Positions 32,394 to 55,565 of a stretch of 57,122 nucleotides of DNA are shown piece after piece. The DNA comes from an uncultured Eubacteriales bacterium (lineage in GTDB: Bacteria > Acidobacteriota > Aminicenantia > Aminicenantales > Aminicenantaceae). A model generated the notes under the pieces. That model did no database searches. It was not told the DNA's origin and was given only the letters and a program-made list of their open reading frames with translations. How positions within the stretch are numbered: the first letter of the stretch is position 1; each line of letters starts with the position of its first letter. The position numbers and the translations under genes were made by a program. The stretch lies in the NCBI GenBank assembly GCA_964540205.1, contig CAZIMJ010000142.1, positions 1 to 57,122 on the forward strand, given 5' to 3'.

Positions 32394-35171
32394 CTACTTA
32401 TAACCGAAAAGCATACTATAAATGATTAACAGGATCAGCGAAATTCCGATAAAGAGGAAGATATAACCAAATATCCTCACCAGCGTCATTTTTTTGGGGG
32501 ATATTTCCTTGAGGACAACGTCTTTCTTCAACTGCCCCGATTCTTTCAAGTATTTGTATTCTTCAGGACGATCTTCTTTGTATTCATCGAGGGGGACCAA
32601 ACCTGTAAAAATGACAGGATCGAGGGGGAAGGATTCTGGACGCAGATGGGTATTGAAGAAATGGATTGTGAAGATAAAGCCCACAGCAAGTAGGGCTTCG
32701 TCGCTATGGATGATCATGGCGACATTGATGAACCAACCGGGCAGGAGCTTTGTAAAGAATTCCGGGAACCACAGGATCAATCCGGAAAATCCGATGACTC
32801 CCACTCCCCAGAAAACAGCCATGTAATCGAATTTCTCCCAGTAGGTCCAGCGCCCATATGCAGGTCGGGGACCCATACCTAGAAACCACTTGATCGAGCC
32901 GATAAAGTCTTTGAGATCTTTTTTGTTGAACCAGAGAGCTCTGCCCCCGAAGATCAACTGACGGACAGTTGTCCTTGTTTTGATCTTTAATCTGATCATG
33001 GAGTATATATGCGCGAAAAAATATCCGAAGGTGATTGCGGCAGAAAATCTGTGAATGCGCCCGGCCGCCTCTACTCCGCCAAACATATCGGCAAGAAACC
33101 TGGCCCAGGGCATGCTGGCAAACTTGAGCATCATTCCTGTCAGCGCCAATCCCATAAAACTCAGGATCACGAAGATGTGCATGATTCGCTGGTCTGTCGT
33201 GAACCGTTGGATGTAATACCTCTTGTGGATCTTTTCTGCGTTTCTTTTTTCTTTGAGGTGTTTGTAAGATCGAGGCATCCAGAGCAGAGTATGAATACCG
33301 AAAAAAGTGAATACGGAGATAAGCAATCCGGTCATGGCCCAGAAAGTAAAATACAGAATGGGATATTTCGCTTTATCGTGATGAGTGGCATGTGTCAGGT
33401 AGCCTGTGAATCGCCGATTGGCGTCAGAATGGCATTTCTGGCAGGTTTCGACCACTCTGTTGAATCCCACATGGGAATCAGGGTCGTCCACTTTAAGAAT
33501 GTCGTGTGCGCCGTGGCAATCTGAACACTTGGCTGTCTTCAGATAGCCAAGTGTGTAAGCTTTCCCGTGGATGGTTTCTGTGTAGGACTCTGACAGCTCC
33601 TCGTGACACGACCCGCATTGGTGGGTGACTTCGGACATAAACTGATCCATGTGGATGTCTTTGATCTGGTGTGCGGAGTGGCAGTCTTCACAGTTGGGAA
33701 GCTTCTCATTTAATTTGGAGATGGTTGAACTGTGAATGCTGTTCACAAAATCCTGGTAGATGCCTTCGTGGCAAGTCGCACAAGTCGAGGGAAGATTTTT
33801 GTGGTTAACGGATGATCGTTCATCCTCATGGTTCAAGATGAAGTGTGTACTGTGGCAGTCTGAACATACCGCGCTGGGTAAAAGACCTTTTTTTATCAAA
33901 CCTTGCCCATGTACGCTATTGGAATAATCGACGACAACTGTACCTTGATGGGTCTTTATAGTGGCCGGATGATCCAGCTTGCCATGGCAAGCTCCACACA
34001 ACTCAGGGATTTTTGACCGGTATGTTTTTGCCTGATCATTCAGATGGGATATAATAGTGTGTTTTCCGTGACAGTCTGTGCAGTAAGGAGAATCAGGGTC
34101 CTTCTCGAAATAGGCTTCTCCATGACCACTCTCAAAATAATCTTCAGCGATCTGGGCATGACAATTGGAACAATCGACCCGGCCTGCTGTTTCACAGGGA
34201 CGGTGTTTTTGCGGGCTGATATCTGCATGACATTTGACACAGGGGATGTTTTTGTGTGCAGAATCCTGGATGTCTTCTTTTTTGACTGTAAGAGAGATTT
34301 GTTGGCCTTCCACAGTCTTAAAAACATCGGGTTTCTCATGACACGTCAGACACTCCCGGTCGGAAGTCCTGATGACCAGATTTGTTCGTCTTATGGTATG
34401 AGGCTGATGGCAATCGGTACAGGCGGGTATGGCCCCTGGCTCTTGTTCCCAAAGTTCACCCTTGATGATCTTTATGTGAACTTCTTCAATCCGGGCATGG
34501 CATTTGGTGCATGTGTTGGCGATATTGCGAGCGGAGACTGTAGAACGAGAAATTGTATGTGGGAGGACGAGATGGTTGCCATGGCAATCATTGCAGGTGG
34601 CGGTCACGATGAGCCCTCGTTTGAAAAGGCCTTCCCCGTGGATACTCTGGGAATAATTACTTAAAATGTCGTGTTCTGGGATGTTGTATACTCGAGCAAC
34701 AGGAGCTCCCTCCCTGTGGCATTTTCCGCAGAGTACTGGGATATTCATTTTATAGGTGCGCGATCTCACATCGGAGGGAGGCAGGATACAGTGTTCTCCA
34801 TGACATTCTGCGCAGGTCGGTGCGTAGGGTGCACCTCGTCTTAAAGCATTTCCATGGATTCCCGCATTGAATTCTTCATCGGCCACGTCATGGCAGATCC
34901 CGCAGTTGACTCTTTCTAGTTGTTCCGGATGAGGAAAATCCTCGACATCTGCATTCTGGTGGCAGCCGATACAATCCGAGTCTTTGTGGACCGAGCCTGC
35001 AAATCTTTGGAAATCCACGTACAAGGAGACCGTGCGTCCTCTTCTCTCAGTCGTCAGTTCTCGATCGGAGTGGCAAGTTTCGCAATCTTCGTTACTCTGA
35101 GATCGAGCAATGCAAGGAACAAGAAAGAGGCCCAATAAGACAACGAAGAATATTTTTTTTATCGTCATCAA
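32394..35171 (-). CDS. 19-heme c-type cytochrome fused to a C-terminal membrane b-type cytochrome domain (HydC/FdnI-like; CbcL-like architecture)
   Basis: Signal peptide and 19 CXXCH motifs in residues 30-590. Next come about 330 aa with multiple TM helices and conserved His residues (RFTTDQRIMH..., IIHSDEALLAVGFIFTIHFFNTH). Confidence 0.85.
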   Translation of the reverse strand: MMTIKKIFFVVLLGLFLVPCIARSQSNEDCETCHSDRELTTERRGRTVSLYVDFQRFAGSVHKDSDCIGCHQNADVEDFPHPEQLERVNCGICHDVADEEFNAGIHGNALRRGAPYAPTCAECHGEHCILPPSDVRSRTYKMNIPVLCGKCHREGAPVARVYNIPEHDILSNYSQSIHGEGLFKRGLIVTATCNDCHGNHLVLPHTISRSTVSARNIANTCTKCHARIEEVHIKIIKGELWEQEPGAIPACTDCHQPHTIRRTNLVIRTSDRECLTCHEKPDVFKTVEGQQISLTVKKEDIQDSAHKNIPCVKCHADISPQKHRPCETAGRVDCSNCHAQIAEDYFESGHGEAYFEKDPDSPYCTDCHGKHTIISHLNDQAKTYRSKIPELCGACHGKLDHPATIKTHQGTVVVDYSNSVHGQGLIKKGLLPSAVCSDCHSTHFILNHEDERSSVNHKNLPSTCATCHEGIYQDFVNSIHSSTISKLNEKLPNCEDCHSAHQIKDIHMDQFMSEVTHQCGSCHEELSESYTETIHGKAYTLGYLKTAKCSDCHGAHDILKVDDPDSHVGFNRVVETCQKCHSDANRRFTGYLTHATHHDKAKYPILYFTFWAMTGLLISVFTFFGIHTLLWMPRSYKHLKEKRNAEKIHKRYYIQRFTTDQRIMHIFVILSFMGLALTGMMLKFASMPWARFLADMFGGVEAAGRIHRFSAAITFGYFFAHIYSMIRLKIKTRTTVRQLIFGGRALWFNKKDLKDFIGSIKWFLGMGPRPAYGRWTYWEKFDYMAVFWGVGVIGFSGLILWFPEFFTKLLPGWFINVAMIIHSDEALLAVGFIFTIHFFNTHLRPESFPLDPVIFTGLVPLDEYKEDRPEEYKYLKESGQLKKDVVLKEISPKKMTLVRIFGYIFLFIGISLILLIIYSMLFGYK

Positions 35172-35285
35172 TGAAGCTCGTTCGGCATTTCTGTCAGGAT
35201 TTCCCCCGTGTTTTTTGAGCGCCTTGCAGAACAGTAATTTACCTTTAATCCAATCCTAAATAACAAATATTAATAAATTCAGATT

Positions 35286-35804
35286 TTACTGCTTTTCTGG
35301 CCTAGGATGCTTGACTTTTGCCCAGGCGGCGTCAAAATCGAAGGGTTTATCATGAGCATTTTCATGACAGGAAAGGCACTGTGTTTTTATAGCATCAGGC
35401 GAACCGTATTCTGTCAAACCGTTCTTCACAGCTTCGGCATGGTCTTTCATGATGCTCATCTTTTTGAATGCACTTCCAGGGCCATGACAGACCTCACATG
35501 ACACTCCCTCTTCTTTTAACTCGGGTGCCTTTTCCGCAAGTGGGCTATGGCATTTCAAGCATTTCGGATTGTCGGGAGCATCTGCTGCGAGCGCTTTGGC
35601 ATCATCAGATGTCAGTGCGGAGAATGATTTAGAATGTTTCCTGGCTTCCCATAAGGGAAACTGCTGGCCTTGTTTTTCACTCTTGTGACACATTTTGCAT
35701 TTCGCTGCACCCACATAAGTGAAATCCTGTGTAAAAAGCGTAAAAGGAATGATGATTATCAAAACTGCTGTTAAATAGATTAGCTTCTTCACCTCATCCT
35801 CCAT
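35286..35804 (-). CDS. periplasmic tetraheme c-type cytochrome
   Basis: CKMCH, CLKCH, CEVCH and CLSCH motifs plus a signal peptide (KKLIYLTAVLIIII). Start is ambiguous: ATG 35804, or GTG 35792, which has a GGAGGA 4 nt upstream. The track TTG at 35828 lies at or upstream of the predicted sigma54 transcription start. Confidence 0.8.
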   Translation of the reverse strand: MEDEVKKLIYLTAVLIIIIPFTLFTQDFTYVGAAKCKMCHKSEKQGQQFPLWEARKHSKSFSALTSDDAKALAADAPDNPKCLKCHSPLAEKAPELKEEGVSCEVCHGPGSAFKKMSIMKDHAEAVKNGLTEYGSPDAIKTQCLSCHENAHDKPFDFDAAWAKVKHPRPEKQ

Positions 35805-35835
35805 TCTCAAGATAGAATTATAACTCAAATATTAT

Positions 35836-35851
35836 AGCAAGATGTATGCCA
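35836..35851 (-). promoter_or_regulatory. sigma54 (-24/-12) promoter
   Basis: Minus strand reads TGGCAT-ACATC-TTGCT, with GG and GC at canonical spacing. Lies about 30-45 nt upstream of the tetraheme gene start. Confidence 0.6.
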
Positions 35852-35934
35852 AGATAAAGAGAAAATTATTATGTTGTAATCAAAGAAGTTATAAAGAATA
35901 ACGCAAAAGTTATCAGAAGAATAAAAACACTAAT

Positions 35935-35970
35935 TGGGTGATATGACCCACACCAGGGGGAATTCACCCA
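35935..35970. promoter_or_regulatory. candidate enhancer (UAS) for a sigma54 activator
   Basis: TGGGTGATATGACCCA (15/16 identical to the palindrome at 47368), then 13 nt, then the half-site TCACCCA. Lies 85-120 bp upstream of the sigma54 promoter. Confidence 0.5.
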
Positions 35971-35988
35971 GAAAATTTAAGCAGAGAT

Positions 35989-38007
35989 TCAGAGGGATTC
36001 GTTTTCTGTTTCTTTTCCTATGGAGTCCACATTTTTTATCAAATTTGTCAAGGCCTCTTCCATATACATATAATTATGGATTCCTGAGCTACCGTCAAGC
36101 TTGATATTCTGAAGTGTGCATTCGGTTTCCCGCAGTGTCTTCTTCTCTTGTTCGCTCAGCTTCAGCTTTTTCTTTTCCTTTAGGAGTGACATCAGAGATG
36201 CGGACAGATCCTTCACGGATTGTTGCCATTCTGTGAACATGTCAGCATAATCCTCATCATGGCAGTCCAGGCACTTATTTTTATCGGACCTGAATATGTT
36301 GTTCTGATCATTAAAATGACAATCTGTACATTCTGCACCCGCTTCGAACATGATGTCTCCGGGGACTTCTTTTTCGTTGAGGATCCCACCCTGATAGAAA
36401 GTTTTCTGCAATTGATGACAACTCGTACAGTCTTTCTTAAGGTCTTTATGGTGACAGGACGCACAGCCCTTCTTTGTGGCGATGAGCTCGCCATGCGTGC
36501 GGACGTTTGAATGGCAGGTGTCACACTGGATGTTCTGTTCGATGAGGTGTTTTTTGTGTGGGAAATTTAGACCATAGACATATGCATTGATTTCCTCGAT
36601 CCCTTGATGGTAGTTGGAACACTGAGTGGGGATGTTTTTAGCTGGAGCTTCAAACGTTGGAGGTTTATAACGAGATTCAATGACATTCAGCGCCTCAAGC
36701 ATCTTATTGTAAGCAGCAAAAAGCAGTTCTTGGGAATAGGCGAAATTGTGGACACTCTTACCCTTGTCCACAATTTCGATATTGAATAGCGCTTCTTCCA
36801 TGAGGGATTCCGCATTCCTCTTGTTTGTGTGTCTTGATCCTTTGACGATCTGCAATGTGGAATTGTAGACAGACCTGATTTGGATTAGTTTTTTTGCGGT
36901 TGAGGTTTCCCAATCCCTGAGGATGAGAGAAAAACCTTTGGCATGGCAGGATTCACAGGATTCCGCCTCGGAAACAAATGTTTCTCCCTTGATGCCGTCG
37001 CCTTTGGCTTCCTCATGAAAGATGTGACAGCCTTTGCAGCTCAGTCCTTTTTCAAGCATGATGTTGGGCATGGGGTGAGAAACGCCCTTGCCACCTTCTC
37101 CGATATACAGCATTTTTTGAGCTTTATGAAAATCCGTATGACAGGATTGGCAATTGGCGATAGATTCAATATCCTTGATGATCTTGTGCTGGATTTCCAT
37201 GTGGCATTGGTTGCATTCGATTTTATTCTGAAAAATGTGTGTGTCGTGCATCAGGTCAGTATCCTCGTATTGCTCAAGCCTATCTTGCTCCCAGTGGCAC
37301 TTGTAACAGTTTTCTCTAGGAACTTCTCCATCACCAAGGACAGTGTTGGCGTGGCATTTGTCACAGGTGAAACCGTTATCGAAAACAAGAGAGTGATTGA
37401 ATCGTGTGTCTTCATTGTTGACAAGGGTGTCTTTTGTATGGCAATGGGAACAATCATCTATCTGGGGATAGTGCTCGCTTTTTTTGAAATGGCAGATGAA
37501 GCAGGTGCTTTCAGTGACCGTGATGTGCTCTCCCTGAACGATCTGGGAGTGGCAGCTTGTGCACTGGAGGCGTTTCCCCCTTTTTAGATCTTCGAAATGG
37601 ATTTTGTGGTCGAAGACAACCTTTTTGAATTTGACTCGGCCTTCAAGTAACCTTCTATCGTGACATCCTTCTGTCAAGCAACTCTCATCGCGGATCTCTG
37701 CCCATGGTTTAGATTTGACGTAAAGCTTAGTCCAGTAGCGACCCACCATGACGAGTCCCTCGATCTTTTTTCTCAACACGGACCGGATTCCTCCGGATGG
37801 TGGATAATGGCACGCACTGCATTCGAATTCACTGTGCGAAGATGTTTCCCAACTTTCGAAAAAAGGCTTCATAAAATGGCATGAGGCACAAAAACCCGAA
37901 TGAGACGTGAATTCCACGGCTGTAACAAACAGAACTAGAACAAATAAAGCGATACTGCCAAAAATGATAAGTCTCTTTTTTCTTTTTTTATGTTTCTTTT
38001 CTTTCAT
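35989..38007 (-). CDS. membrane-anchored multiheme cytochrome (16 CXXCH + 1 CX4CH) with a NapC/NirT/NrfH-like N-terminus
   Basis: ATG 38007 after GAGGA gives MKEKKHKKRKKRLIIFGSIALFVLVLFV (TM anchor). CASCH...CSACH follows, as in NapC/NrfH quinol dehydrogenases, then 14 further CXXCH motifs. The track extension to 38292 overlaps ccsA. Confidence 0.85.
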   Translation of the reverse strand: MKEKKHKKRKKRLIIFGSIALFVLVLFVTAVEFTSHSGFCASCHFMKPFFESWETSSHSEFECSACHYPPSGGIRSVLRKKIEGLVMVGRYWTKLYVKSKPWAEIRDESCLTEGCHDRRLLEGRVKFKKVVFDHKIHFEDLKRGKRLQCTSCHSQIVQGEHITVTESTCFICHFKKSEHYPQIDDCSHCHTKDTLVNNEDTRFNHSLVFDNGFTCDKCHANTVLGDGEVPRENCYKCHWEQDRLEQYEDTDLMHDTHIFQNKIECNQCHMEIQHKIIKDIESIANCQSCHTDFHKAQKMLYIGEGGKGVSHPMPNIMLEKGLSCKGCHIFHEEAKGDGIKGETFVSEAESCESCHAKGFSLILRDWETSTAKKLIQIRSVYNSTLQIVKGSRHTNKRNAESLMEEALFNIEIVDKGKSVHNFAYSQELLFAAYNKMLEALNVIESRYKPPTFEAPAKNIPTQCSNYHQGIEEINAYVYGLNFPHKKHLIEQNIQCDTCHSNVRTHGELIATKKGCASCHHKDLKKDCTSCHQLQKTFYQGGILNEKEVPGDIMFEAGAECTDCHFNDQNNIFRSDKNKCLDCHDEDYADMFTEWQQSVKDLSASLMSLLKEKKKLKLSEQEKKTLRETECTLQNIKLDGSSGIHNYMYMEEALTNLIKNVDSIGKETENESL

Positions 38008-38138
38008 CGCTTTTTCCTCGTGGATATTCAGCCGCGTATTATAGTCGATCTGCCTGAGTTTGGATCTCTTCGTTATCCTGTTATCTTCTCTATTTCTTAA
38101 TCGAACTCTTTTATTACAGAGTCGCTCTGGCACGGAGA

Positions 38139-38957
38139 TCAAGTGTAGCTGTGGAGTCCGGCTAGCAGATAATTCACGCCGAAGTAAGTGAAGAGTGCAG
38201 CAAGAAATCCGATTACGGCGATGAGTGCGGACCGGCGCCCCTTCCAACCCATCACGACCCGTGTGTGTAAATACAGAGCAAAAACGAACCAAGTGATCAG
38301 ACTCCAGGTCTCTTTAGGGTCCCAACTCCAGTAACTTCCCCAGGCTTTATAAGCCCAGACCATACCGAAAACGAGTCCTCCAAGTGTAAAAAGCGGGAAT
38401 CCGATGGCGATGGTTCTATAACTGATGGAATCGAGTTTTTCAGCTGTCAGAGAAGATTTTGCAGCCATTCCCTTTTTCTCTTTAGAATCTGCCACTAGAT
38501 ACATAATGCTTGTGATAAATCCTACAGCGAAAAAAGCCTCACCGAGAAGAGTGACAGAAACATGAAGCCACAGCCAATAACTCTGGAGTGCAGGGACAAG
38601 TGGTGTGGCTTCTTTGGGCATGAGTGGCGAGGAGGCCAGTGCCATCAGCCCGATCACAATAAGCATAAAATACGGACCGGCATTTTTTATTTTAAACTTC
38701 CCTTCGATAAGAACATAGGCAAAGATGGCGGACCATGCGAGGAAAGAGAGGGATTCATACATGTTTGTAAAGGGCGCATGTCCGCTTTCAATTGTTCTTA
38801 AAATCAGAGCCGCCGTATGAACGATGAGACCCGCAAATGCAAAGGTGTATCCTGATTTGGCGAGGTTATCTTTTTTCGAAAAGAGGTAGGTAAAATAAAA
38901 GAATGCAGCCACGATGCAGAGGATAAACGCTATAAGAAATAGAGTGGATTCGTTCAT
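38139..38957 (-). CDS. ccsA: cytochrome c biogenesis protein CcsA/ResC (system II heme handling)
   Basis: WGSYWSWDPKETWSLITW tryptophan-rich (WWD) motif, multi-TM, 272 aa. 4-nt overlap with the resB-like gene. Confidence 0.9.
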   Translation of the reverse strand: MNESTLFLIAFILCIVAAFFYFTYLFSKKDNLAKSGYTFAFAGLIVHTAALILRTIESGHAPFTNMYESLSFLAWSAIFAYVLIEGKFKIKNAGPYFMLIVIGLMALASSPLMPKEATPLVPALQSYWLWLHVSVTLLGEAFFAVGFITSIMYLVADSKEKKGMAAKSSLTAEKLDSISYRTIAIGFPLFTLGGLVFGMVWAYKAWGSYWSWDPKETWSLITWFVFALYLHTRVVMGWKGRRSALIAVIGFLAALFTYFGVNYLLAGLHSYT

Positions 38958-40306
38958 TGTGATCTCCTTATGGACTCCATGATTTTGTCAAACTCCGATT
39001 GGAAATCCTCGCGGTTTTTAGCGGCTATCCCGCCGGTTGTGAGATCCGTTTTATTCTGACTTTCTTCAAGGATGATTTTGATCTCTCGAGTGGGCCAGAA
39101 AAAAGCTACAAATAGGCCAACCATAAGAAGGGTACAGCCCACCCAGATAAAGTTGACTCCGGGGTCCTTGGACATCTGAATACCAGAGTATTGGGCGGCT
39201 CGCAAGTCTTTAAATTCAAAGGATAGATCGGTTTCTATGGCTGAATGCATGCGCCCGAAGTCAGGGAACTTGGCAAAGATCCAACTTGAGAATACTTTCT
39301 CTTCCTCTCGCCAGCCTTCGATATAGGCTGCAGGATTATTTGGCTCGAGCGAGCGGGTGGCGATCTCGTTGTTCTCACCGATGATGAAATCCGGAACAAA
39401 ATTGATGACAGCTATTTCGATGTTCTCCTCACCGATCTGCGCTTTTTCTCCCACTCCGAGCTCAAACTTTTTCAAGAAGGCGGGGTCATTTTTCTTTTTG
39501 GCCCAGATCTCTAGTGTAGGATTCTCCCAATCCCATCCATAACTGCTCTGGTAGAAGACAAATCCTTTATGGGAGAGTGGGTGATTGACCTCGATGGTTT
39601 TAGATAAAACATCCGAGCCGTTTTCTATAACTGTGAGGGTGCTTTTCCAGTCCCGGACACTCCCGTTTGGATGATACTCTGTGACAAACTTATCCAGCCG
39701 GAGTTCAAAATCTGCTTGGGGGACAGGAATGGTTTTCCCCTCGGAAATATTCAGATTGGTCCGGAATCCGCTCATTCCACTGATAATCCCACCGATGATA
39801 ATTATGAGAAGGCCGAGATGAACGATATCTGAGCCGAAAAGTCCGAGTACTCGCTTCCGTGCGAGTAAGAACGCCGTGTTTTCGTTTTGATCTGTTTTAA
39901 GACGGAAATGTTTGGATGAAAGCATTTTTTGGACATCAGGTATTGTCTTTTCTAGATTCTGATTCTTTTTGAAACTGGCTGTTGTTTTCAGAGAGAGCAG
40001 CTTCTTTTTCTCTGTCTCAAACTTTGGTTGGAATGCCTTTCTCAATTTTGGAGAGAGGCGGGTGAGTGTGCAAACAAGGATATTCACTGCAAAGAGAAAG
40101 AGCAGAGAGATGAACCACCAGGATTGATAAAGTTTGGTGAACTCTAGCCTGATGAGAAAATTAGCAATATCTCCGTATCGGTCCAAATATTCTCCCGGGC
40201 TGCGCTGCTGAGGGATCAATGTGCCCAGAATGGAAGCTATGGTGATAAAGATCAAAAGAAAAATGGCGAGTTTAACAGAACTGAAAAAATTGAAAAATGA
40301 TTTCAT
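38954..40306 (-). CDS. ccsB: cytochrome c biogenesis protein ResB/CcsB
   Basis: N-terminus FFSSVKLAIFLLIFITIASILGTLIPQ, a large periplasmic domain and C-terminal TM helices, 450 aa. Confidence 0.9.
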   Translation of the reverse strand: MKSFFNFFSSVKLAIFLLIFITIASILGTLIPQQRSPGEYLDRYGDIANFLIRLEFTKLYQSWWFISLLFLFAVNILVCTLTRLSPKLRKAFQPKFETEKKKLLSLKTTASFKKNQNLEKTIPDVQKMLSSKHFRLKTDQNENTAFLLARKRVLGLFGSDIVHLGLLIIIIGGIISGMSGFRTNLNISEGKTIPVPQADFELRLDKFVTEYHPNGSVRDWKSTLTVIENGSDVLSKTIEVNHPLSHKGFVFYQSSYGWDWENPTLEIWAKKKNDPAFLKKFELGVGEKAQIGEENIEIAVINFVPDFIIGENNEIATRSLEPNNPAAYIEGWREEEKVFSSWIFAKFPDFGRMHSAIETDLSFEFKDLRAAQYSGIQMSKDPGVNFIWVGCTLLMVGLFVAFFWPTREIKIILEESQNKTDLTTGGIAAKNREDFQSEFDKIMESIRRSQ

Positions 40307-40522
40307 TGGACCCTGCTTATATCAGAGATAAGGATTAGTAGGAATAATATAGAATAAGTTGCCTTATGGCAACAACGTAACAATTTTTCCTTGTTCTCTT
40401 CTAAGTTATAGTATCTTTATAGTTAAAGACTCCATATTATATCATATCTATGAAAATAGTAGGTTTAACTTTTTACCTGTTCGTGCTGTTTGACTCCGAA
40501 TCTTCTGATCTTGGCTCGAAAT

Positions 40523-41767: not shown

Positions 41768-41818
41768 TTTGTACCTCCCTCCTCAGAGATATAAAATCGC
41801 AAGATCATTAGATTATAA

Positions 41819-41847
41819 ATTCTATAGAAGTAGTAAGGTCTTTTCAA
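41819..41847 (-). promoter_or_regulatory. candidate sigma70 promoter of the HAO-like gene
   Basis: Minus strand reads TTGAAA (41847-41842), N17, TAGAAT (41824-41819), about 50 nt upstream of the TTG start. Confidence 0.35.
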
Positions 41848-41857
41848 GAAAAAAGAT

Positions 41858-41894
41858 AAAAAAAAGGGCAGCATTTTCGGATGCTGCCCTTTTT
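41858..41894 (-). terminator. rho-independent terminator ending the porin-cytochrome operon
   Basis: GGGCAGCAT-tttcgg-ATGCTGCCC is a 9-bp GC-rich stem. It is flanked by A8 on the plus strand (U8 on the minus transcript) and T5. Lies 27 nt downstream of the 41921 stop. Confidence 0.8.
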
Positions 41895-41920
41895 GTAACT
41901 AGCCTATCGGGTGCTTCATC

Positions 41921-44068: not shown

Positions 44069-44079
44069 GGGTTCCTCCT

Positions 44080-45951
44080 CTATTTATCCCAACTATAGCC
44101 AAATGATATCTCGAAGATATTGACCTTGTAGTCATTGAATCCGGATATCGGTTCTTTGTAATCCACAACCCGGTAGGCCAGCTCTGCAGCCAATCCCATA
44201 AGGAATTCGTACTCAATGTAGGCTTTGAACGTGGTGCGCTTGATCTCCCAGAAACCGGTGTTTTTGTAGAAATTGGCGTAGGCACCGAAGCCCCACTGTT
44301 CATTCAGGTCCCAATCGAGGTAGAAATCCCAGAGAGTGGATTTGCCTTCGTACATGATTTCCCACATGAACGCGCCACCCGGTCCACTCCAATCTGGTGG
44401 ATATTCAACACTCCGGTCGCCCTTGTGCTCCACGTCGATAAGAGCATATCCGGCAAAAGCTTTGATCTTTTCAGTATGATATCCGGCTCGAAGGTTGAGC
44501 ATGTTTTTACTCGATTCCCAGAGCTCATCATAGAGATCATTCTTGGATTTTTGAAAGGTCATTGCTGCAGAGCCGTAGAACTCTTGCAGGCGCACTTTTG
44601 CTGTGGTTCTAAATCGATTATAGGTCATGGGGGAGGTCAGCGTATAGGGATTGTCGTAGGACCCATATTGATGGTCGAATGTTAGATTGAAGATCCGGGA
44701 AGGCGTCCACTGCAGGTTGCCGAAGATCCCATTCCTCGTTGTATCGGTTTCATAGTCTACAGTCTCCAACTCCTCGCTTTTCAACTTTCTCTTCTCGTTC
44801 CTGTATCCGAATGTCAGGCCAAATTTTGATGAGAACTGATACTGAAGTCCGGCTTCGATTCCAAGGGTGTTAAATTTGGGTTCAGTGGTTTTTGTCTCGC
44901 CATCGACGGTCATGGAGCCTTCCTGTTTGAAGTCGTGTGAGCGGACAGCTCCGATCACAGCCAGCTTGTGTGTCACGAGGTATGTGAAGTCTAATTCGTA
45001 GAGTCCGATCTTGCGCTCGAATTTTCCAGTACCACTCATACTGTAATCGAAGGGTCTTCCCAGGTAATTGACGCCATCTGTTTCCTCTGAGTAATGAAGG
45101 TCCATATCCAGGTCGCTGATCTGAGCGATTCCTTTGATCAAGAGACTATCGATCGGCTTGGTGTTGAGTTTGAATGTGTGTGTGAGAGATTTGAGATCAT
45201 AGGGTTGGTCCATGTAGAAATAGCTCAACGAAGAAGGATACCCTGCCCCAGCTCCACCATCGGCTGCGCCAGGAAGGAAGTAACTATTGGTATTTTCGTA
45301 CTCCCGGACTTTTGCCTCATAGACAAGAGAGAGGCGTGAAAAGTGAACATCCACACCTACGGCGATCTCATCAGATTTTTCCTCGATGGGCTTATCGAAC
45401 TCGAATTCGATCCTGTTGATGTCGAGTGTTGTAACACTCATTCCTTTCTTTGTGAATCCGAAATACGAAGCAAAAAGCTGAACATTCTTTGATGCCTCTA
45501 ATGAGAACATCGCGCTGTCCATCGTCCTGTCGAAATCAAAGGTGTGGTAATCGTAGAGGTGGCCGTTGAACTGAGTCTGGTCTGCGTAAAAATAGGCAGA
45601 TTTTCTCCGTTCCCACTTGAATTTATAGCTTCCGTATTTCTGGACGGTGAGATCGAACGACTGGAAAGGTTCGATCCCTAGATTGCGGACGCTGATATCC
45701 AGACGGTCGAAGAATGTCTTGAGGGTTTCTTCCGGCGTGTAACTGAGGTTGAATGAGTGTAGATACGCTCCTGAGCCGAGGTTGATATCTTCTTTGTACT
45801 TTGTGTAAGCTCCGCTGGTGTCGACGAACCGGTAACCGAACTTGAAGTCTCCTTTGAACTTTTTCGCTTCCTCTTGAGCGGAGAGAGAAAATGTCATTGA
45901 TAGGACAAAGACAAACAATAAAACGGGCAATATAATTTTTATTCTTCTCAA
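44080..45951 (-). CDS. putative outer-membrane beta-barrel protein (MtrB/PioB-like position in a porin-cytochrome operon)
   Basis: Signal peptide MRRIKIILPVLLFVFVLSMTFSLSAQ. 623 aa of alternating aromatic/polar beta-strand-like segments with no Cys or heme motifs. Sits between two decaheme genes. Confidence 0.65.
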   Translation of the reverse strand: MRRIKIILPVLLFVFVLSMTFSLSAQEEAKKFKGDFKFGYRFVDTSGAYTKYKEDINLGSGAYLHSFNLSYTPEETLKTFFDRLDISVRNLGIEPFQSFDLTVQKYGSYKFKWERRKSAYFYADQTQFNGHLYDYHTFDFDRTMDSAMFSLEASKNVQLFASYFGFTKKGMSVTTLDINRIEFEFDKPIEEKSDEIAVGVDVHFSRLSLVYEAKVREYENTNSYFLPGAADGGAGAGYPSSLSYFYMDQPYDLKSLTHTFKLNTKPIDSLLIKGIAQISDLDMDLHYSEETDGVNYLGRPFDYSMSGTGKFERKIGLYELDFTYLVTHKLAVIGAVRSHDFKQEGSMTVDGETKTTEPKFNTLGIEAGLQYQFSSKFGLTFGYRNEKRKLKSEELETVDYETDTTRNGIFGNLQWTPSRIFNLTFDHQYGSYDNPYTLTSPMTYNRFRTTAKVRLQEFYGSAAMTFQKSKNDLYDELWESSKNMLNLRAGYHTEKIKAFAGYALIDVEHKGDRSVEYPPDWSGPGGAFMWEIMYEGKSTLWDFYLDWDLNEQWGFGAYANFYKNTGFWEIKRTTFKAYIEYEFLMGLAAELAYRVVDYKEPISGFNDYKVNIFEISFGYSWDK

Positions 45952-45960
45952 TTTTCTCTC

Positions 45961-46818
45961 CTATTTCAAAAAGATCTTGCTCAGATTGGAACCGTGAATG
46001 GTTGCGTGACAGCTCGTACAATTTGTCGAGTAGGAATCGAAGCGTTCGTGCCAGGCAGGTGCTGCCCCATGACAACTGAAGCAGAGGTCCGCAATGCTGT
46101 GGAATGTGAGCATGTGCCTGTTGGGGCTTCCGTGGACATCATGGCATGCGGAGCAACCTTCGATCCTCGATGCGCCGTGTTCATGAAGGTAAGGGCCTTC
46201 CTTATCTGTGTGGCATTTGAAGCAGGATTCGTGCTTGAAGCCTCCTAAGCGCTCTCGTGTGGCTGGAACATGAGGATCATGACAGTCCGAGCAGTCCATG
46301 ATTCCTTCCTGGAGTCTGTGGCGTTCGTTTAACTGGAACTCGGAAAAAACTTCCTGATGACAGATATAACAAGTTTTTGTCGCGCCAAGCTTTAGGAGAG
46401 AAGGATTTGTCTCTTCCGCGTGCATGACATGGCAAGAGGTACAGTCCATGGAAGCTTTTCCATGGGGGCTTGCAAAGTAAGCGGAATTGGACTTGGCATG
46501 ACATGTCAGGCATTTGTCAGTTTTCGCGTTCGGAACATCTGTGGATTTAAAAGCAAAGATGTTTGCTCCCCCTCCTTCTTCGAAGTGCGTCTCAGCATCG
46601 CCGTGGCAAGCCGTGCAGCTGTTATTAACAGCATGAGGCTTGGACATGAATGCTTTGGCCAAGTCTTCATGACAATCGGCGCAAGTGTCGATATCCGCTT
46701 CTTGAACAACAGGTTTGGCAGCGGATAGATACCCTGCAACGACCAGCGCTAAGCCAATGAGCACGATCATCTGGAGGGAGGGCCATGTTTTCTGTTTTGT
46801 GAATTTTGTGTGCAACAA
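45961..46818 (-). CDS. periplasmic decaheme c-type cytochrome, MtrA/DmsE-like
   Basis: 285 aa with 10 CXXCH motifs (about one heme per 28 aa) and a signal peptide. Immediately upstream of the beta-barrel gene. Confidence 0.85.
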   Translation of the reverse strand: MLHTKFTKQKTWPSLQMIVLIGLALVVAGYLSAAKPVVQEADIDTCADCHEDLAKAFMSKPHAVNNSCTACHGDAETHFEEGGGANIFAFKSTDVPNAKTDKCLTCHAKSNSAYFASPHGKASMDCTSCHVMHAEETNPSLLKLGATKTCYICHQEVFSEFQLNERHRLQEGIMDCSDCHDPHVPATRERLGGFKHESCFKCHTDKEGPYLHEHGASRIEGCSACHDVHGSPNRHMLTFHSIADLCFSCHGAAPAWHERFDSYSTNCTSCHATIHGSNLSKIFLK

Positions 46819-46828
46819 AGACCTCCTA

Positions 46829-47209
46829 TTAGTAGGTTTTTCCCTTATTTTTTTTATCCTCTATCCCTTGAGATAGAGCCCTGATTTGCCCTGAATCGAA
46901 GGGTTTCTCGATGATGGCATTTACTGAAATGCCTTCGATTTGGGACTCGATCTGCTTTTGAGATTGGGCGGACAGGATGATTATTTGTGTTTCTGGATGA
47001 GACTTCTTCAGTTTTTTCAGCATGTCAATGCAGTTCTCATCTTCAATTTCAAAATCAACAAAGATCAACTGGTACGAAACTTTTTCTGTTTGGCTAAAAG
47101 CGTCGTTTATGTTGGAAACAACATCTACGTAATGGCCTTCCTGGGCAAGTATTTCCTTTAAAGACCATCGGATAAGCTTGTCATCGTCAATTACGAGTAC
47201 TTTTAGCAT
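46829..47209 (-). CDS. single-domain response regulator (CheY-like receiver)
   Basis: MLKVLVIDDD..., phospho-acceptor context LIFVDFEI, ILSA, EKPF. No output domain. ATG 47209 follows AAGGTG. Confidence 0.9.
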   Translation of the reverse strand: MLKVLVIDDDKLIRWSLKEILAQEGHYVDVVSNINDAFSQTEKVSYQLIFVDFEIEDENCIDMLKKLKKSHPETQIIILSAQSQKQIESQIEGISVNAIIEKPFDSGQIRALSQGIEDKKNKGKTY

Positions 47210-47238
47210 AAACACACCTTTATTCTAAGTCTCTATTT

Positions 47239-47254
47239 AGCAATAGTTGTGCCA
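47239..47254 (-). promoter_or_regulatory. sigma54 (-24/-12) promoter
   Basis: Minus strand reads TGGCAC-AACTA-TTGCT, a perfect match to TGGCAC-N5-TTGCW. Lies about 30 nt upstream of the receiver gene ATG. Confidence 0.65.
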
Positions 47255-47347
47255 AGATGGAGAATTCGGGCGTATTAATGTATGTCATTGAAAATAATGA
47301 GTTTGTAATTTGATTTTTTGAGTGGATAAAATTTGCAGAAATAATTA

Positions 47348-47383
47348 TGGGTGAAATACACCAAAAGTGGGTGATATCACCCA
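47348..47383. promoter_or_regulatory. candidate enhancer (UAS) for a sigma54 activator
   Basis: Half-site TGGGTGA, then 13 nt, then the perfect 16-bp palindrome TGGGTGATATCACCCA. Lies about 95-130 bp upstream of the sigma54 promoter. The same architecture occurs at 35935-35970. Confidence 0.55.
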
Positions 47384-47389
47384 CTTTTT
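47363..47389 (-). terminator. possible bidirectional intrinsic terminator (overlaps the palindromic UAS)
   Basis: AAAA-GTGGGTGATATCACCCAC-TTTTT lies about 55 nt downstream of the stop of the sigma54 activator gene. This is an alternative or additional reading of the same palindrome. Confidence 0.4.
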
Positions 47390-47440
47390 CACTTGATCGG
47401 ATGTGCTGATTGTTGGGAGAACAGCGAGGAAATAGAGGTA

Positions 47441-48832
47441 TCATTCAGGCAGGTTAATATCTTTAGAAGTGATGTTCCATTTTTTTGTCTTGTAACGCAT
47501 GGCATCTCGTGTGATGCCCAATGTTTTTGCGGCTTTTGATTTATTCCCATGAGCTTTGTTCAGAGCCCTGATCAAGAGGTATTTTTCGGCATCAGCTAAG
47601 GTCATTGCCCTTCCAAGAGCTTGTTTCTTTGGCTGAGCCGGGTATGAAGAAGGCCTTCTGTCTGAATGGAAGGGGAGGTGTTTAGCCGTGATATAAGGCC
47701 CCTGTTCAAAGATCATGGCTCTCTCTATGGCATTTTTCAACTCTCGGACGTTTCCCGGCCAGTCGTAATCCAGGAATAGCTTTTGGGCCTCTTTGTCAAG
47801 GCCTTGGATGTTTTTCCTGAATCTGATGTTCTCTTGTCGGACAAAAAAACCGCCAAGCGGAAGAATATCGGTTTTCCTTTCCCGCAAGGGAGGGATGTAA
47901 ATGGGGCAAACGTTGAGCCTATAGTAGAGGTCGTGCCGGAACTTTTCCTCTCCAGTCGCTGTTTCAAGGTCTTGGTTTGTGGTGGCGACCACGCGGATAT
48001 CGACTTCGATGTCTTTGAGTCCGCCAACCCGCTTGAATGACTGTGTCTCTAAAAATCGCAACAACTTTGCCTGTAGAGGAAGACTCATTGTCCCGATCTC
48101 GTCAAGAAGGAGTGTTCCTTTATGTGCGAGTTCGACCAGACCCTTTTTCTGTTGTTTGGCATCGGTAAATGCACCTTTTTCGTAGCCGAATAATTCGCTC
48201 TCCAGAAGATTCTCGGGAATGGCAGAACAGTTTATAGCCTGATATGACGCTGCTTTCCTTCGGCTGAGATAGTGAATGGCCTGTGCCAAAAGGTCTTTTC
48301 CGGTTCCGCTCTCACCCTGCAAAAGCACAATTTTGGCCTCGCTCTGGGCGACTATCTGGGTGATCTCAAGAATCTTTTTCATCGTCTTGGATTCAGTGAC
48401 AATAGAAGACAGGTCGAACTGCTTTTGTTCTTTTTCTTTGTAGTATGCGACTTCTTTTTTAAGAGATGCTGTTTCCAGAGCATTGTTCACTGCGCTCTGT
48501 AGTTTGAGGTCGTTGATCGGCTTTGCGATAAAATCATACGCTCCACGGCGCATAGCTGTCACCGCATCGTCGATAGAACCATAAGCTGTGATCATAATCA
48601 CCGGGATTCCTGGCCACTGGCCCTTTATCTCCTCAAGGAACTCTGTCCCTTTCTGATCCGGAAGATTGACATCAAGAACCACCAGGTCAGGGGATTCTCT
48701 CTCTAATATTTGTCTCCCCAACTCACAGGTTTCAGCCTCGAGAGTTTCCAAGTTCCATTCGGAAAACTTTTGAATCAGACTCCATCGGATGAGTTTCTCA
48801 TCGTCGATAATAAGGATCCTCTTTCTGCTCAT
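47441..48832 (-). CDS. sigma54-dependent response regulator (NtrC family enhancer-binding protein)
   Basis: Receiver domain (ILIIDDE, VVLDVNLPD), AAA+ domain (GESGTGKDLLA, ESELFGYEKGAFTDA) and a C-terminal Fis-type HTH (AAKTLGITRDAMRYK). ATG 48832 is preferred to GTG 48838. Confidence 0.95.
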   Translation of the reverse strand: MSRKRILIIDDEKLIRWSLIQKFSEWNLETLEAETCELGRQILERESPDLVVLDVNLPDQKGTEFLEEIKGQWPGIPVIMITAYGSIDDAVTAMRRGAYDFIAKPINDLKLQSAVNNALETASLKKEVAYYKEKEQKQFDLSSIVTESKTMKKILEITQIVAQSEAKIVLLQGESGTGKDLLAQAIHYLSRRKAASYQAINCSAIPENLLESELFGYEKGAFTDAKQQKKGLVELAHKGTLLLDEIGTMSLPLQAKLLRFLETQSFKRVGGLKDIEVDIRVVATTNQDLETATGEEKFRHDLYYRLNVCPIYIPPLRERKTDILPLGGFFVRQENIRFRKNIQGLDKEAQKLFLDYDWPGNVRELKNAIERAMIFEQGPYITAKHLPFHSDRRPSSYPAQPKKQALGRAMTLADAEKYLLIRALNKAHGNKSKAAKTLGITRDAMRYKTKKWNITSKDINLPE

Positions 48833-48834
48833 GG

Positions 48835-50325
48835 TCACTCAGCCCGATTGATAAGAGAAAGGCGAATGGTGAAGACCGTTCCCTTTCCCTCTTCACTTTG
48901 GACATCTATAGAGCCCTTGTGGGCCTCGATGGTCTTTTTGCAGATGGAAAGCCCCAGTCCCGTTCCACGTCTTCGTGTCGTGAAAAAGGGATCAAACACT
49001 TGGGTGAGATGTTCGGCCTTAATTCCTTTTCCATCGTCCCTAATGGCGATTTCCAGCCATCGATCTTTTTGTTGATTCAGGTCGATCGAAATTTCCCCTT
49101 TCTCTTCTATCGCCGCGATACTATTTATCAAAAGATTCAGAATGACTTCCTGGATCTTGTTTTCATCACATAGTATTTGAATCTCTTCTTTGGATTTTTC
49201 CATATGGAACTTGATGTCCTTTTGTTGCGTTTGGGATTGAGCGAAAGTGACAGCTCTTTGGATACATTCGTTTGGATTGACGGGTTTCAAGTTGATTTCT
49301 CTTGGCCGTGCATAGCTCAACAGGTCTTGGACGATGTTGTAAATACGGTCTATCTGTTGCAGGATCTCCGTAAAGATCTCCTTTTGTGGGTCGGCGGGAT
49401 CCGTCCTTTGGTTGATGACTTCTAAGGCTCCTTTAATGCCGGCAATAGGATTTTTTATCTCATGAGCGAGCCCTGCCGCCAGCTCCCCCATCGATGCGAG
49501 GTGCCCCGCCTTTTCCAATTCTCTGCCGTGCAATTCTTCGATTTGTTGCTTTGCCAGTCTAAGATTTGAGACCATGATGTTAAAGCTCTGGGTGAGATCC
49601 CCGATGTCATCATTTTTTAAGGGTCTAAGCTGAACGTGGAGGTTGCCCCCTTGAACTTGATTCATCTTATTCTTTAATTGGGATAGGGGTCGGTTTATGA
49701 TTTTTTCAAAAAGGCGCAGAGTGATAAAGATCAGTACCCCTAGTGCAAGGAAACTTATGATAACAGATCTGAGTTGGGTTTTGTAAATGAACGCAGCCAT
49801 AGGTATTTCCTCAAGATCCATTTCAAGCAGGGCGATTATTCTCTTATCGGATGAATGGCATGCATAACATTCCTCTTTGTTTTGGATGGTGTAAAAAGTT
49901 TGATTTGTGGAAATGTGGTTAATCTTTGGAATAATCGCTTGATCCACACCTGAATAGAGCTCATTTACTTTCTGGATTCGATTTTCTGAGATGTAGTTAC
50001 CAACTTCATCGAAATCTGAAGATTCTAATATTTTCCCTTTGAAGTCGATGATGCGAAGGCTTTTAATTTTATTCGAATCAGCCAGACGCTGCAAAGCGTA
50101 GCCCACATCATTTGGCTTTCCCTCTTGCATTCGATGGGTGACGCTGTATTCTATCATCGAGCCTACAAGTTCTGCCTTCTCTTGACTTAATGTATTGATG
50201 ATGTTTTTTTGTGTGGATAGATAGAGGTACGTCAAAAGGGCGCCCGCCGATATTCCGATGACCACAATGTGAAGGACGATCTTGTTTTTTAAATTCCAAT
50301 CTTTGAGTCGCAGATTTATTTTCAT
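48835..50325 (-). CDS. sensor histidine kinase with a periplasmic CXXCH (c-heme) sensor domain, HAMP, HisKA and HATPase
   Basis: Two TM helices flank a periplasmic domain of about 140 aa that contains CYACH (49869-49855). HAMP region, H-box GLAHEIKNP, and N/G boxes (RRRGTGLGLSI). Confidence 0.9.
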   Translation of the reverse strand: MKINLRLKDWNLKNKIVLHIVVIGISAGALLTYLYLSTQKNIINTLSQEKAELVGSMIEYSVTHRMQEGKPNDVGYALQRLADSNKIKSLRIIDFKGKILESSDFDEVGNYISENRIQKVNELYSGVDQAIIPKINHISTNQTFYTIQNKEECYACHSSDKRIIALLEMDLEEIPMAAFIYKTQLRSVIISFLALGVLIFITLRLFEKIINRPLSQLKNKMNQVQGGNLHVQLRPLKNDDIGDLTQSFNIMVSNLRLAKQQIEELHGRELEKAGHLASMGELAAGLAHEIKNPIAGIKGALEVINQRTDPADPQKEIFTEILQQIDRIYNIVQDLLSYARPREINLKPVNPNECIQRAVTFAQSQTQQKDIKFHMEKSKEEIQILCDENKIQEVILNLLINSIAAIEEKGEISIDLNQQKDRWLEIAIRDDGKGIKAEHLTQVFDPFFTTRRRGTGLGLSICKKTIEAHKGSIDVQSEEGKGTVFTIRLSLINRAE

Positions 50326-50338
50326 TACCTTCTTCAGT

Positions 50339-51373
50339 TTAAAATTGCAAAATAAATTCTGTTCCCGGCTCCCTCCGCATCTCTATTTCTCCATCGAGCT
50401 GATCGACCAAATTCATAACTATTTGCATTCCGAGAGTGGTTGCATTACGGAAATCTATGGTTTCGGGAAATCCTATCCCATTGTCTTTAAAATGCAGGAT
50501 TTGACTTCCGCATGCCGCTTTACCCAGACTTATAACAATCTCTCCTTTCAAGTCATCAGGAAATGCATGCTTCAGGGCATTGGATAACAATTCATTGATT
50601 ATCAAAGTACAGGGGATGGCTTTGTCCAAGACAAGATTTACATCCTGGATTTCCCTTTGGACTCGAATGTTTTTTATACCTTCACAATACAGAGAAAAAG
50701 AATAGCTGATCAATTTCTCTAGTGGATTTGAAATATTAATTCGCAATAAGCTCGGGGAGTTATACAATCTCCTCTTGATGAAGTCTATGGTTTTTATTCG
50801 GTTTTTTGCTGCCTGTATGTCTGCCTCAATCGTTTCTTTTTCGAGTTTCTCATGTAATAATTCCAGAATCCGGGAAAAGACCTCGTGGTCAAATCTTGCT
50901 TGGCGTTTAATTTCATCACGGATAATTTCATTCTCTCTGTACGTGGACATGATGAGTTCTTCGGCCAGCTTTCGCTCATGAATATCCCTGACGACACTCA
51001 GGATGATCTTATGATCTTTGTAGTTTATGTAGCGGGCACTCACCTCTACTGGCATGACAGTCCCGTCTTTCCTCCGGTCGGCTGACTCGAATATCGCCAC
51101 CCCATCCTTCTTCAGTTGGCCGACTCTTTCCCTAACTTTTTCGGAGAATTCTGGTGCTACCAAATCCTTCAGGGACATCTTGAGCAGATCTTGTTTCTTG
51201 AATCCCAGACGTTTGTACATCGTCTGATTGACATCAAATATGTGACCTTCGGTGTCATGAATGATAATTCCATCATTGGTACTCTCAAAGATCATCCTGT
51301 ATAAATTTTCGGATTCAAGGAGGATTTTTAATTCTTTTATGAGGCGTTCATTAGGCTTGTCTGTGTCTTTCAT
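50339..51373 (-). CDS. cytoplasmic PAS-domain sensor kinase (HisKA_2/HATPase-like) with a divergent H-box
   Basis: PAS domain (ENLYRMIFESTNDGIIIHD...), then FDHEVFSRIL in place of the usual HHRVKNNL, then an ATPase domain (INELLSNALKHAF, DNGIGF). Confidence 0.75.
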   Translation of the reverse strand: MKDTDKPNERLIKELKILLESENLYRMIFESTNDGIIIHDTEGHIFDVNQTMYKRLGFKKQDLLKMSLKDLVAPEFSEKVRERVGQLKKDGVAIFESADRRKDGTVMPVEVSARYINYKDHKIILSVVRDIHERKLAEELIMSTYRENEIIRDEIKRQARFDHEVFSRILELLHEKLEKETIEADIQAAKNRIKTIDFIKRRLYNSPSLLRINISNPLEKLISYSFSLYCEGIKNIRVQREIQDVNLVLDKAIPCTLIINELLSNALKHAFPDDLKGEIVISLGKAACGSQILHFKDNGIGFPETIDFRNATTLGMQIVMNLVDQLDGEIEMRREPGTEFILQF

Positions 51374-55562: not shown

Positions 55563-55565
55563 TGA

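Follow-up and report, generated by a model that had tools for sequence, protein, structure and literature searches.

The described systems closest to the locus considered here are the outer-membrane conduits MtrCAB of Shewanella (PDB 6r2q) and MtoAB and PioAB of Fe(II) oxidizers, together with the larger clusters that combine such conduits with quinol oxidoreductases. In Rhodoferax ferrireducens two cymA genes, mtrH and mtrABC lie in one cluster (PMC6295460); mtoABD-cymA operons are known, and mtoAB(D)-cymA/mtoC clusters occur in Sideroxydans and Dechloromonas (Shi et al., 2012; Zhong and Shi, 2018, PMC6295460). Homologs of CbcL/MtrH carry 3-23 hemes and span 15 phyla (PMC6295460). Within the Acidobacteriota, clusters of multiheme cytochromes and a beta-barrel in Thermoanaerobaculia, syntenic in metagenome-assembled genomes (MAGs) and in an Fe/Mn-reducing isolate, have been proposed to serve metal reduction (Flieder et al., bioRxiv 10.1101/2020.10.01.322446). 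For Aminicenantes, our search of the literature for a described extracellular electron transfer cluster returned only survey-level mentions (FeGenie, Lake Towuti and Bothnian Sea studies). We report here that positions 32394-51373 of a 57,122-nucleotide stretch of DNA from an uncultured member of the Aminicenantaceae (assembly GCA_964540205.1, contig CAZIMJ010000142.1; hereafter the window) form a heme-packed respiratory neighborhood around a Shewanella-type MtrA/MtrB outer-membrane conduit.

The neighborhood comprises 13 genes, and the listing of open reading frames (ORFs) places all of them on the minus strand, in agreement with a first-pass annotation of this DNA made by eye from the letters and ORFs. 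The minus-strand run is in fact wider than that annotation had it, spanning 24265-51915: on its downstream side it takes in ribonucleotide reductase together with thiM, thiL and thiE, and on its upstream side it reaches an Rrf2 regulator. Summed over the window proteins, our own count gives 68 CXXCH motifs and one CX4CH, and reproduces exactly the earlier tally of 19 + 4 + 16 (+1 CX4CH) + 8 + 10 + 10 with one more in a sensor kinase; residue shuffles of the same proteins that preserved composition (1000 of them) produced a mean of 0.42 and at most 3 CXXCH. The number of motifs per ortholog is the same throughout (53 MtrA-like proteins, 43 outer decahemes, 18 HAO-like proteins, 9 c554-like proteins and 11 kinases), which argues that these are real multiheme cytochromes, the sole exception being a NapC-type cytochrome whose window copy is one CXXCH short. 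Every type of part that had been named is indeed present by Pfam, NCBIfam and PDB searches, and together the parts could make up the proposed route that links quinol pool and cell surface. We favor, as the probable though by no means certain reading, that this is a neighborhood for outward extracellular electron transfer.

In such a pathway, electrons would leave the quinol pool through two unrelated membrane proteins: a NapC/NrfH-type anchor that extends into the periplasm with 17-18 hemes, and a CbcL/MtrH-type 19-heme cytochrome fused to an FdnI-like cytochrome b. The long heme domains of these two proteins, together with a c554-like tetraheme cytochrome, would move the electrons over the periplasm to an MtrA-like decaheme within an MtrB-like barrel. 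The decaheme would hand them to a lineage-specific 10-heme protein on the outer side, and the latter may reduce extracellular acceptors, for instance humics, partner cells or minerals of Fe(III)/Mn(IV). Control would begin with a membrane kinase that carries a c-type heme on its periplasmic side and uses it to sense a heme ligand or the redox state of the periplasm. This kinase would phosphorylate an NtrC-type activator, and the activator would bind at TGGGTnATATnACCCA, the palindrome that precedes two sigma-54 promoters, and turn on the operons RR128-mtrA-porin-10-heme (RR128 being a receiver-only response regulator) and c554-19-heme/b. An Fe-S Rrf2 regulator may add a second, more ancestral, modulating layer, and an HAO-like octaheme may act as a reductase fed by the same quinol dehydrogenases.

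The center of the locus is a trio of genes spaced 9-11 nucleotides apart. The first (45961-46818) encodes a periplasmic MtrA/DmsE-like decaheme of 285 amino acids with 10 CXXCH, which matches the MtrA chain of 6r2q with E 6.9e-24. The second (44080-45951) encodes an MtrB/PioB-like outer-membrane beta-barrel of 623 amino acids. Its AlphaFold2 model is all-beta (predicted local distance difference test score, pLDDT, 78.5) and has as its top Foldseek match MtrB itself (6r2q_B, E 1.2e-15, template modeling scores 0.60/0.58); the 22-strand TonB-receptor barrels trail it by five orders of magnitude. PF11854 (MtrB_PioB) is found in 3 of 24 members of the barrel family, with a best E of 2.8e-10, and one homolog carries the NCBI name MtrB/PioB family; the barrel profile returned nothing useful from PDB sequences. 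The MtrA-like decaheme may sit inside the MtrB-like barrel, in the putative arrangement of a conduit. The third gene (41921-44068) encodes a 715-residue cytochrome with 10 CXXCH, the candidate outer partner, built as two tandem pentaheme modules of about 340 amino acids (internal repeat 41% identity, E 7e-79). Each module holds an invariant D-x-N-x-N-G-x-x-D loop with the look of a calcium site. We note also that the number of modules varies among homologs: a one-module, 5-heme version of 298 amino acids is found in a complete Aminicenantes chromosome (locus L008, 11885-12781), and some metagenomic homologs reach about 1050-1080 amino acids and probably have three modules (P0193, P0230 and P0236 being cited for such variants).

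The locus thus resembles MtrCAB, MtoAB and PioAB in that an MtrA-homologous decaheme adjoins a large MtrB-like barrel, with a further 10-heme protein co-transcribed. It is nevertheless not MtrCAB proper, which we exclude because a decaheme lipoprotein of the MtrC/OmcA family is missing by sequence, fold, PF22113 and lipobox alike. The third protein has no PDB sequence match, MtrC, OmcA, MtrF and UndA included; its model, mediocre at pLDDT 67, gave no Foldseek match to any of these four, OcwA alone appearing with a weak and non-significant E of 0.41; and PF22113 was not matched at E <= 0.01. The duplicated pentaheme module is a further difference from MtrC, and the gene order is A-B-outer cytochrome here as against C-A-B in MtrCAB. 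The Geobacter Pcc systems (OmaB-OmbB-OmcB/Ext) are likewise excluded, since heme numbers of 10/0/10 stand against an 8-heme protein, a porin of about 20 strands and a 12-heme lipoprotein; in NCBIfam the Geobacter families stay below threshold (GSU2203 family 142 bits, cut-off 325; GSU2204 family 28 bits, cut-off 350).

Several observations weigh against the outward reading or soften it. The MtrA-like protein scores 169.8 bits (E 7.7e-50) with TIGR03508, under the curated DmsE-family cut-off of 192.2, in which it differs from MtrCAB; the strong E with a sub-threshold score marks it as a homolog, yet a divergent member. The window barrel itself has no direct Pfam MtrB_PioB match. In the 10-heme protein the signal peptide is plain and shows no lipobox cysteine, and these features, with the mediocre model, leave the extracellular position that we infer for it unproven. 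The pairing of kinases with regulators is inferred from adjacency. Finally, the direction of electron flow is not readable from sequence, MtrAB-type conduits run both ways, and Aminicenantia MAGs, to which FeGenie scoring has assigned iron reduction (PMC12740246), have also been flagged for Fe oxidation in surveys of that type (PMC12740246).

The two candidate quinol oxidoreductases are of different kinds. The NapC/NirT/NrfH-type module with its long multiheme extension (35989-38007) matches PF03264 over residues 14-157 with 33.4 bits (cut-off 24.1) and NrfH (PDB 2j7a_C) with E 5.9e-8, and has one N-terminal transmembrane helix at residues 13-31. Its ORF as listed (35989-38292, 767 amino acids) runs into ccsA, and because of this overlap, and because the genes of relatives are called that way, the true start can almost certainly be placed at the ATG at 38007, for a protein of 672 amino acids. 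All 16 orthologs counted carry 17 CXXCH and one CX4CH, against 16 and one in the window copy, where a TAC (Tyr) codon at 36610-36612 makes the motif read CSNYH in place of the CxxCH found in 17 of 17 aligned orthologs. The difference is a single TGC to TAC change, and either it is a sequencing or assembly error or this copy is short of one thioether or heme. We ruled out ImcH as an identity for this protein on topology and heme count: the Geobacter ImcH has three transmembrane segments and seven hemes, whereas the second quinol module of the window is of NapC/NrfH type with a single helix. The other oxidoreductase (32394-35171) is a fusion of 925 amino acids with 19 CXXCH within a periplasmic domain at residues 30-581 and 5-6 hydrophobic segments past residue 600; it matches TIGR01583 over residues 654-838 (E 4e-8) and falls just under the PF01292 cut-off (29.0 bits, E 1e-6; cut-off 30.1). 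By its architecture, a multiheme c domain followed by a C-terminal FdnI/HydC-like cytochrome b domain, it would qualify as CbcL/MtrH-type. Compared by domains, it shares this plan with Geobacter CbcL, which has 9 c-hemes and a HydC/FdnI-like b domain, and departs from it in having 19. Directly upstream lies the gene for the periplasmic c554-like tetraheme (35286-35828, 180 amino acids; PF13435 45.8 bits, NF043010 E 2e-8), with 4 CXXCH in all nine orthologs. Its start is likely the ATG at 35804 (MEDEVKK...) and not the listed TTG at 35828, since the latter lies only a few bases from a sigma-54 -12 element.

Two observations concern the surroundings of these modules. A 481-residue protein with an FAD-type GGGPAGS motif, for which Pfam gave no match at E <= 0.001, is encoded on the minus strand at 30853-32298, 95 nucleotides downstream of the 19-heme gene, and homologs of 67-70% identity lie a few kilobases downstream of that gene in three other loci (L060, L061 and L064). 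A third quinone-interacting module is found 3 kb upstream of the neighborhood (54309-57028, minus strand), consisting of a 4-heme NrfB-like cytochrome (184 amino acids), a TAT-exported NrfC-like 4Fe-4S protein (303 amino acids) and an NrfD subunit (417 amino acids); the 4Fe-4S and NrfD genes are also present in the near-identical locus L001, which stops inside the 4Fe-4S gene.

Set beside the Rhodoferax and mto clusters, the window shows the same assembly of conduit, periplasmic carriers, and both NapC/NirT-type and CbcL/MtrH-type quinol oxidoreductases in one locus. The claim that the combination is new consequently holds in part: no characterized cluster matches gene for gene, but the pairing of two quinol oxidoreductase types with a conduit has already been published. 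What sets the window apart is a NapC-type protein with 17-18 hemes where those clusters have 4, that is, some 13 extra; a CbcL-type protein with 19; the interleaving of an HAO-family enzyme, ccsBA and a sigma-54/heme-sensor set; and the lineage, Aminicenantes as against Proteobacteria. The Thermoanaerobaculia clusters, which we can liken to it by description, share the Acidobacteriota affiliation, the periplasmic and extracellular multiheme cytochromes and the barrel, whereas their description includes neither regulators nor an HAO-like enzyme nor quinol modules.

The regulatory genes lie upstream of the trio. The sigma-54 activator (47441-48838) is of NtrC type, with receiver (PF00072), AAA+ (PF00158, 220.8 bits) and Fis-type helix-turn-helix (PF02954) domains, and the receiver-only RR128 (46829-47215; PF00072, 73.1 bits) is the first gene of the sigma-54 operon. 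Two kinases were claimed and both are present, though only one is a membrane sensor. The kinase at 50339-51373 is a cytoplasmic PAS + HisKA_2 + HATPase protein in which a search for a hydrophobic segment found none. The other (48835-50325, 496 amino acids) is a HAMP-HisKA-HATPase membrane protein by Pfam and transmembrane prediction, and its lone CXXCH, at residue 153, falls between transmembrane segments 16-34 and 188-206 and is therefore periplasmic. Since exactly one such motif is kept in 11 of 11 orthologs, this kinase may be a periplasmic heme-based redox or ligand sensor.

A perfect -24/-12 sigma-54 promoter, TGGCACAACTATTGCT, lies at 47239-47254 on the minus strand, upstream of RR128-mtrA-porin-10-heme, and a second, TGGCATACATCTTGCT, at 35836-35851 on the same strand, upstream of the c554-like and 19-heme/b-type genes. 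Both are preceded by a matched palindrome, TGGGT(G/C)ATATCACCCA: TGGGTGATATCACCCA at 47368-47383, about 115 nucleotides upstream of the first, and TGGGTCATATCACCCA at 35935-35950, about 85 nucleotides upstream of the second. The raw number of sigma-54-like matches across the window (up to 2 mismatches) is at chance, 24 against 25.2 expected, and what makes the two promoters credible is their position and strand, the paired palindrome and conservation across species. As many palindrome matches were reached in none of 100 shuffles. The first promoter occupies the same place in 13 other loci (L001, L002, L004, L006, L008, L012, L013, L016, L018-L020, L023 and L034), palindrome and promoter occur together at the equivalent position in at least 12 other species, and the second palindrome site recurs in L001 and L004. 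The pair also goes with the activator gene, being found in 9 of 11 loci that have it against 3 of 28 that do not (Fisher p = 4.7e-5). This conservation and co-occurrence constitute the phylogenetic footprint of a small sigma-54 regulon, and the two matched promoters of the first-pass annotation stand, in the right intergenic regions and on the right strand. The visible regulon is limited to the conduit operon and the c554/19-heme pair. A strong intrinsic terminator (41861-41894, minus strand; 14-bp stem and T-run) follows the 10-heme gene and ends the conduit operon, and the octaheme gene (site at 41847-41819) and resB have sigma-70-like promoters of their own. The octaheme, ResB/CcsA and NapC-type genes form separate transcription units, and the locus is accordingly at least five units and not one operon.

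To this circuit should be added an Rrf2-family regulator (51478-51915, minus strand; PF02082, 115.6 bits) that the first-pass annotation did not list and that sits just outside 32394-51373. Its three cysteines (C-x6-C-x5-C, an Fe-S ligand pattern) are kept in 33 of 33 orthologs, and 21 of 33 species loci have the gene, 61-77% identical, upstream of their conduit; since its linkage to the conduit is broader than that of the two-component set, we count it as part of the system. Divergent from it, on the plus strand at 52269-54290, is a DUF6599 and DUF362 gene pair, which may belong to the Rrf2 regulon; the pair stands beside Rrf2 and the conduit in L001, L003, L012, L015 and L050 and in another arrangement in L032 and L033.

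How far the neighborhood is one system was judged from synteny in relatives, for which we took one genome per GTDB species, giving 54 loci, and compared them through tblastn tables; the denominators that follow are the loci with enough flanking sequence to judge. The MtrA-like decaheme is present in 49 of 49 and the 10-heme protein in 39 of 41. Frequencies then fall to 17/32 for ResB/CcsA, 14/37 for the HAO-like octaheme, 12/30 for the NapC-type cytochrome, 13/45 for the receiver-only regulator, 10/38 for the sigma-54 activator, 9/35 for the heme kinase and 8/29 for the c554-like tetraheme, and the PAS kinase is found in 2 of 33 species loci and in the near-identical L001. The arrangement recurs gene for gene only in L001 and L004, where the porin is 89-92% identical. 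In a metagenome scan, relatives of the 19-heme protein that are at least 75% identical stand beside c554, NapC and ccs genes, and in L128 beside the conduit too, while those at or below 66% occur in unrelated contexts. The locus is therefore not the single-unit island first proposed: as a whole it is not co-conserved, only the trio is constant, and the other genes are exchangeable modules around it. We note that in L003 (18610-21848) the trio is followed by a multiheme, Rieske and cytochrome b set, and in L015 (14223-21599) by an ACIII/Qrc-like set comprising a molybdopterin-like 786-aa protein, an FeS protein, NrfD and several multihemes. Homologs of the barrel, decaheme and octaheme that bear a lineage name are assigned to Candidatus Aminicenantes, Aminicenantales or Aminicenantaceae, and the rest are almost all uncultured. 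Many of the species-representative MAGs that carry this locus (L004, L007, L009, L012 and others) are labeled "uncultured Eubacteriales bacterium" and one homolog is labeled Heimdallarchaeota, labels that look like placeholders or mis-binned entries.

This modularity lends weight to a different view, that there is no single system but a set of independent respiratory modules that come and go. These would be the conduit trio; a NapC-type dehydrogenase with an HAO-like N-oxide reductase, comparable to NrfH/epsilon-Hao or to the Hao-c554-cM552 set; the general system II ccs genes of the organism; and a free-standing CbcL-type module. We regard this as a real possibility, if somewhat short of an even one, and it overlaps with the outward reading. 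Besides the presence and absence pattern over the 54 species, the unrelated contexts of the more distant 19-heme relatives and the number of transcription units, it draws on the cytochrome maturation genes. These encode ResB/Ccs1 (38954-40306; PF05140, 285.6 bits) and a CcsA/ResC-type heme-handling protein (38139-38957; TIGR03144, 278.6 bits, cut-off 187.6; PF01578) of system II, overlap by 4 nucleotides, and were described as dedicated to the locus. CcsA is 70-94% identical to the copies of relatives, yet 15 of 32 species have the conduit with no adjacent ccs genes, and since those loci must still mature multiheme cytochromes, dedication is not supported. The locus moreover encodes homologs of Hao, of c554 and of the NapC-type protein, the complete Nitrosomonas set, and this would agree with a branch that reduces N-oxides in the periplasm and draws its electrons from the same quinol dehydrogenases. 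On the other side, one type of activator site and promoter is common to the conduit operon and the c554/19-heme operon 11 kb away, which argues that at least these two modules are co-regulated, and gene order is kept gene for gene where the porin is 89-92% identical.

The octaheme protein (40523-41767, 414 amino acids, 8 CXXCH; PF13447, 107.5 bits) bears on the direction of the conduit. It had been taken as a mere heme carrier, whereas its catalytic Asp-His pair points to an enzyme. The best PDB match is 6h5l (E 7e-32), with 4n4j and 1fgj among the others, and E values against PDB entries for HAO, HOX and HDH run from 1e-23 to 7e-32. In the HMMER alignment to the Nitrosomonas HAO (NeHAO, PDB 1fgj) its D176 and H177 align with D267 and H268 of NeHAO, and both are invariant in 21 diverse homologs, while the nearly invariant Leu385 aligns with the cross-link position Tyr467. 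In NeHAO we take Asp267 and His268 to be catalytic and Tyr467 to be the residue whose cross-link to the catalytic heme (P460) marks the oxidative enzymes. Invariant tyrosines two residues to either side (Tyr383 and Tyr387) put some doubt on the absence of a cross-link tyrosine. Because the Asp-His pair is kept and the cross-link position is without a tyrosine, the enzyme is predicted to be of the reductive type, and it would most likely be a periplasmic reductase for nitrite, nitric oxide (NO) or hydroxylamine and not just a wire. HAOs that lack the cross-link are reported to reduce nitrite (Ferousi et al., 2021). With the reductive HAOs (Kuenenia Kustc0458 in 6h5l, nitrite-reducing HAO, epsilon-proteobacterial Hao) it has in common the 8 CXXCH, the Asp-His pair and the lack of Tyr at the cross-link position; it differs from them in being shorter, in having heme 1 right behind the signal peptide, and in its genomic partner, an outer-membrane conduit in place of anammox or nitrification genes. 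It is also the most conserved protein of the neighborhood, at 74-93% identity against 43-57% for the barrel; its top 120 database matches are all at least 79% identical, and metagenomes gave more than 7700 hits.

Alternatively, the conduit could run inward in the manner of MtoAB or PioAB. Fe(II), reduced minerals, electrodes or partner cells would then supply the electrons, and the conduit would deliver them to the HAO-like reductase for nitrite, NO or hydroxylamine, or to the quinone pool through reversed CbcL- and NapC-type proteins. We think this unlikely, though it has points in its favor. MtrA, MtoA and PioA homologs give no direction from sequence, CymA and CbcL/MtoC homologs are found in reducers and oxidizers alike, and FeGenie also yields iron-oxidation matches in Aminicenantia; in the 14 species that have it the HAO-like gene directly follows the conduit genes, and the protein is strongly constrained with an active site of the reductive type. 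Yet an extra 10-heme outer partner is typical of reducers, known oxidizers being without MtrC-type partners. The HAO gene, transcribed as a unit of its own, does not belong to the visible sigma-54 regulon and is missing from most conduit loci, and Aminicenantes are mostly reconstructed as anaerobic organotrophs or fermenters in need of electron sinks. A still more doubtful proposal, in our estimate, has the conduit itself end, or begin, catalytically at the octaheme, under the heme-sensor/sigma-54 switch; for an HAO-like gene beside a porin-cytochrome cluster the searchable literature offered no direct precedent. If that wiring were true, electrons from minerals or partners would drive the reduction of nitrite, NO or hydroxylamine, or, in reverse, a hydroxylamine-type oxidation would discharge onto Fe(III), and a very abundant uncultured sediment lineage would possess a metal-nitrogen coupling module.

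That the neighborhood is a horizontally acquired mobile island, for which one might cite the patchy gene content among relatives and single homologous loci binned as Deferrimicrobium and Pseudomonadota, is barely credible and we reject it, since the checks for flanking mobility and composition found GC of 0.41-0.49 inside against 0.41-0.50 outside, no tRNA genes, no integrase, transposase or repeat signatures and housekeeping flanks (thiE/L/M, ribonucleotide reductase, ruvABC), and since the trio follows the Aminicenantes lineage with graded identity of 41-93%. Further off in the window, at 8541-19410, lies a copper/silver resistance neighborhood with DUF302, a CopA-type P-type ATPase (YHS + HMA domains), CusC/CusB/CusA-type efflux and a triple-YHS-domain protein.

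Outward extracellular electron transfer remains the reading that we prefer, and the locus is a lineage-specific modular variant of a known system that leaves the principles of extracellular electron transfer unchanged. Four of its aspects are not described in the literature that we could search: the Aminicenantes trio with its duplicated-pentaheme outer cytochrome; the frequent linkage of that trio to a reductive-type HAO and to ccsBA; the circuit of heme kinase, sigma-54 and palindrome; and the Rrf2 linkage. Among the uncultured bacteria of anoxic sediments, Aminicenantes rank with the most abundant, and the usual description of them is as fermenters. The presence of the trio in at least 54 species-level genomes provides a concrete genetic basis for the iron reduction that surveys have assigned to them, the heme-sensor/sigma-54/palindrome circuit offers a handle on the signal that turns extracellular electron transfer on, and the strongly conserved HAO-like enzyme beside the conduit raises the question of whether metal and nitrogen transformations are coupled in this lineage.

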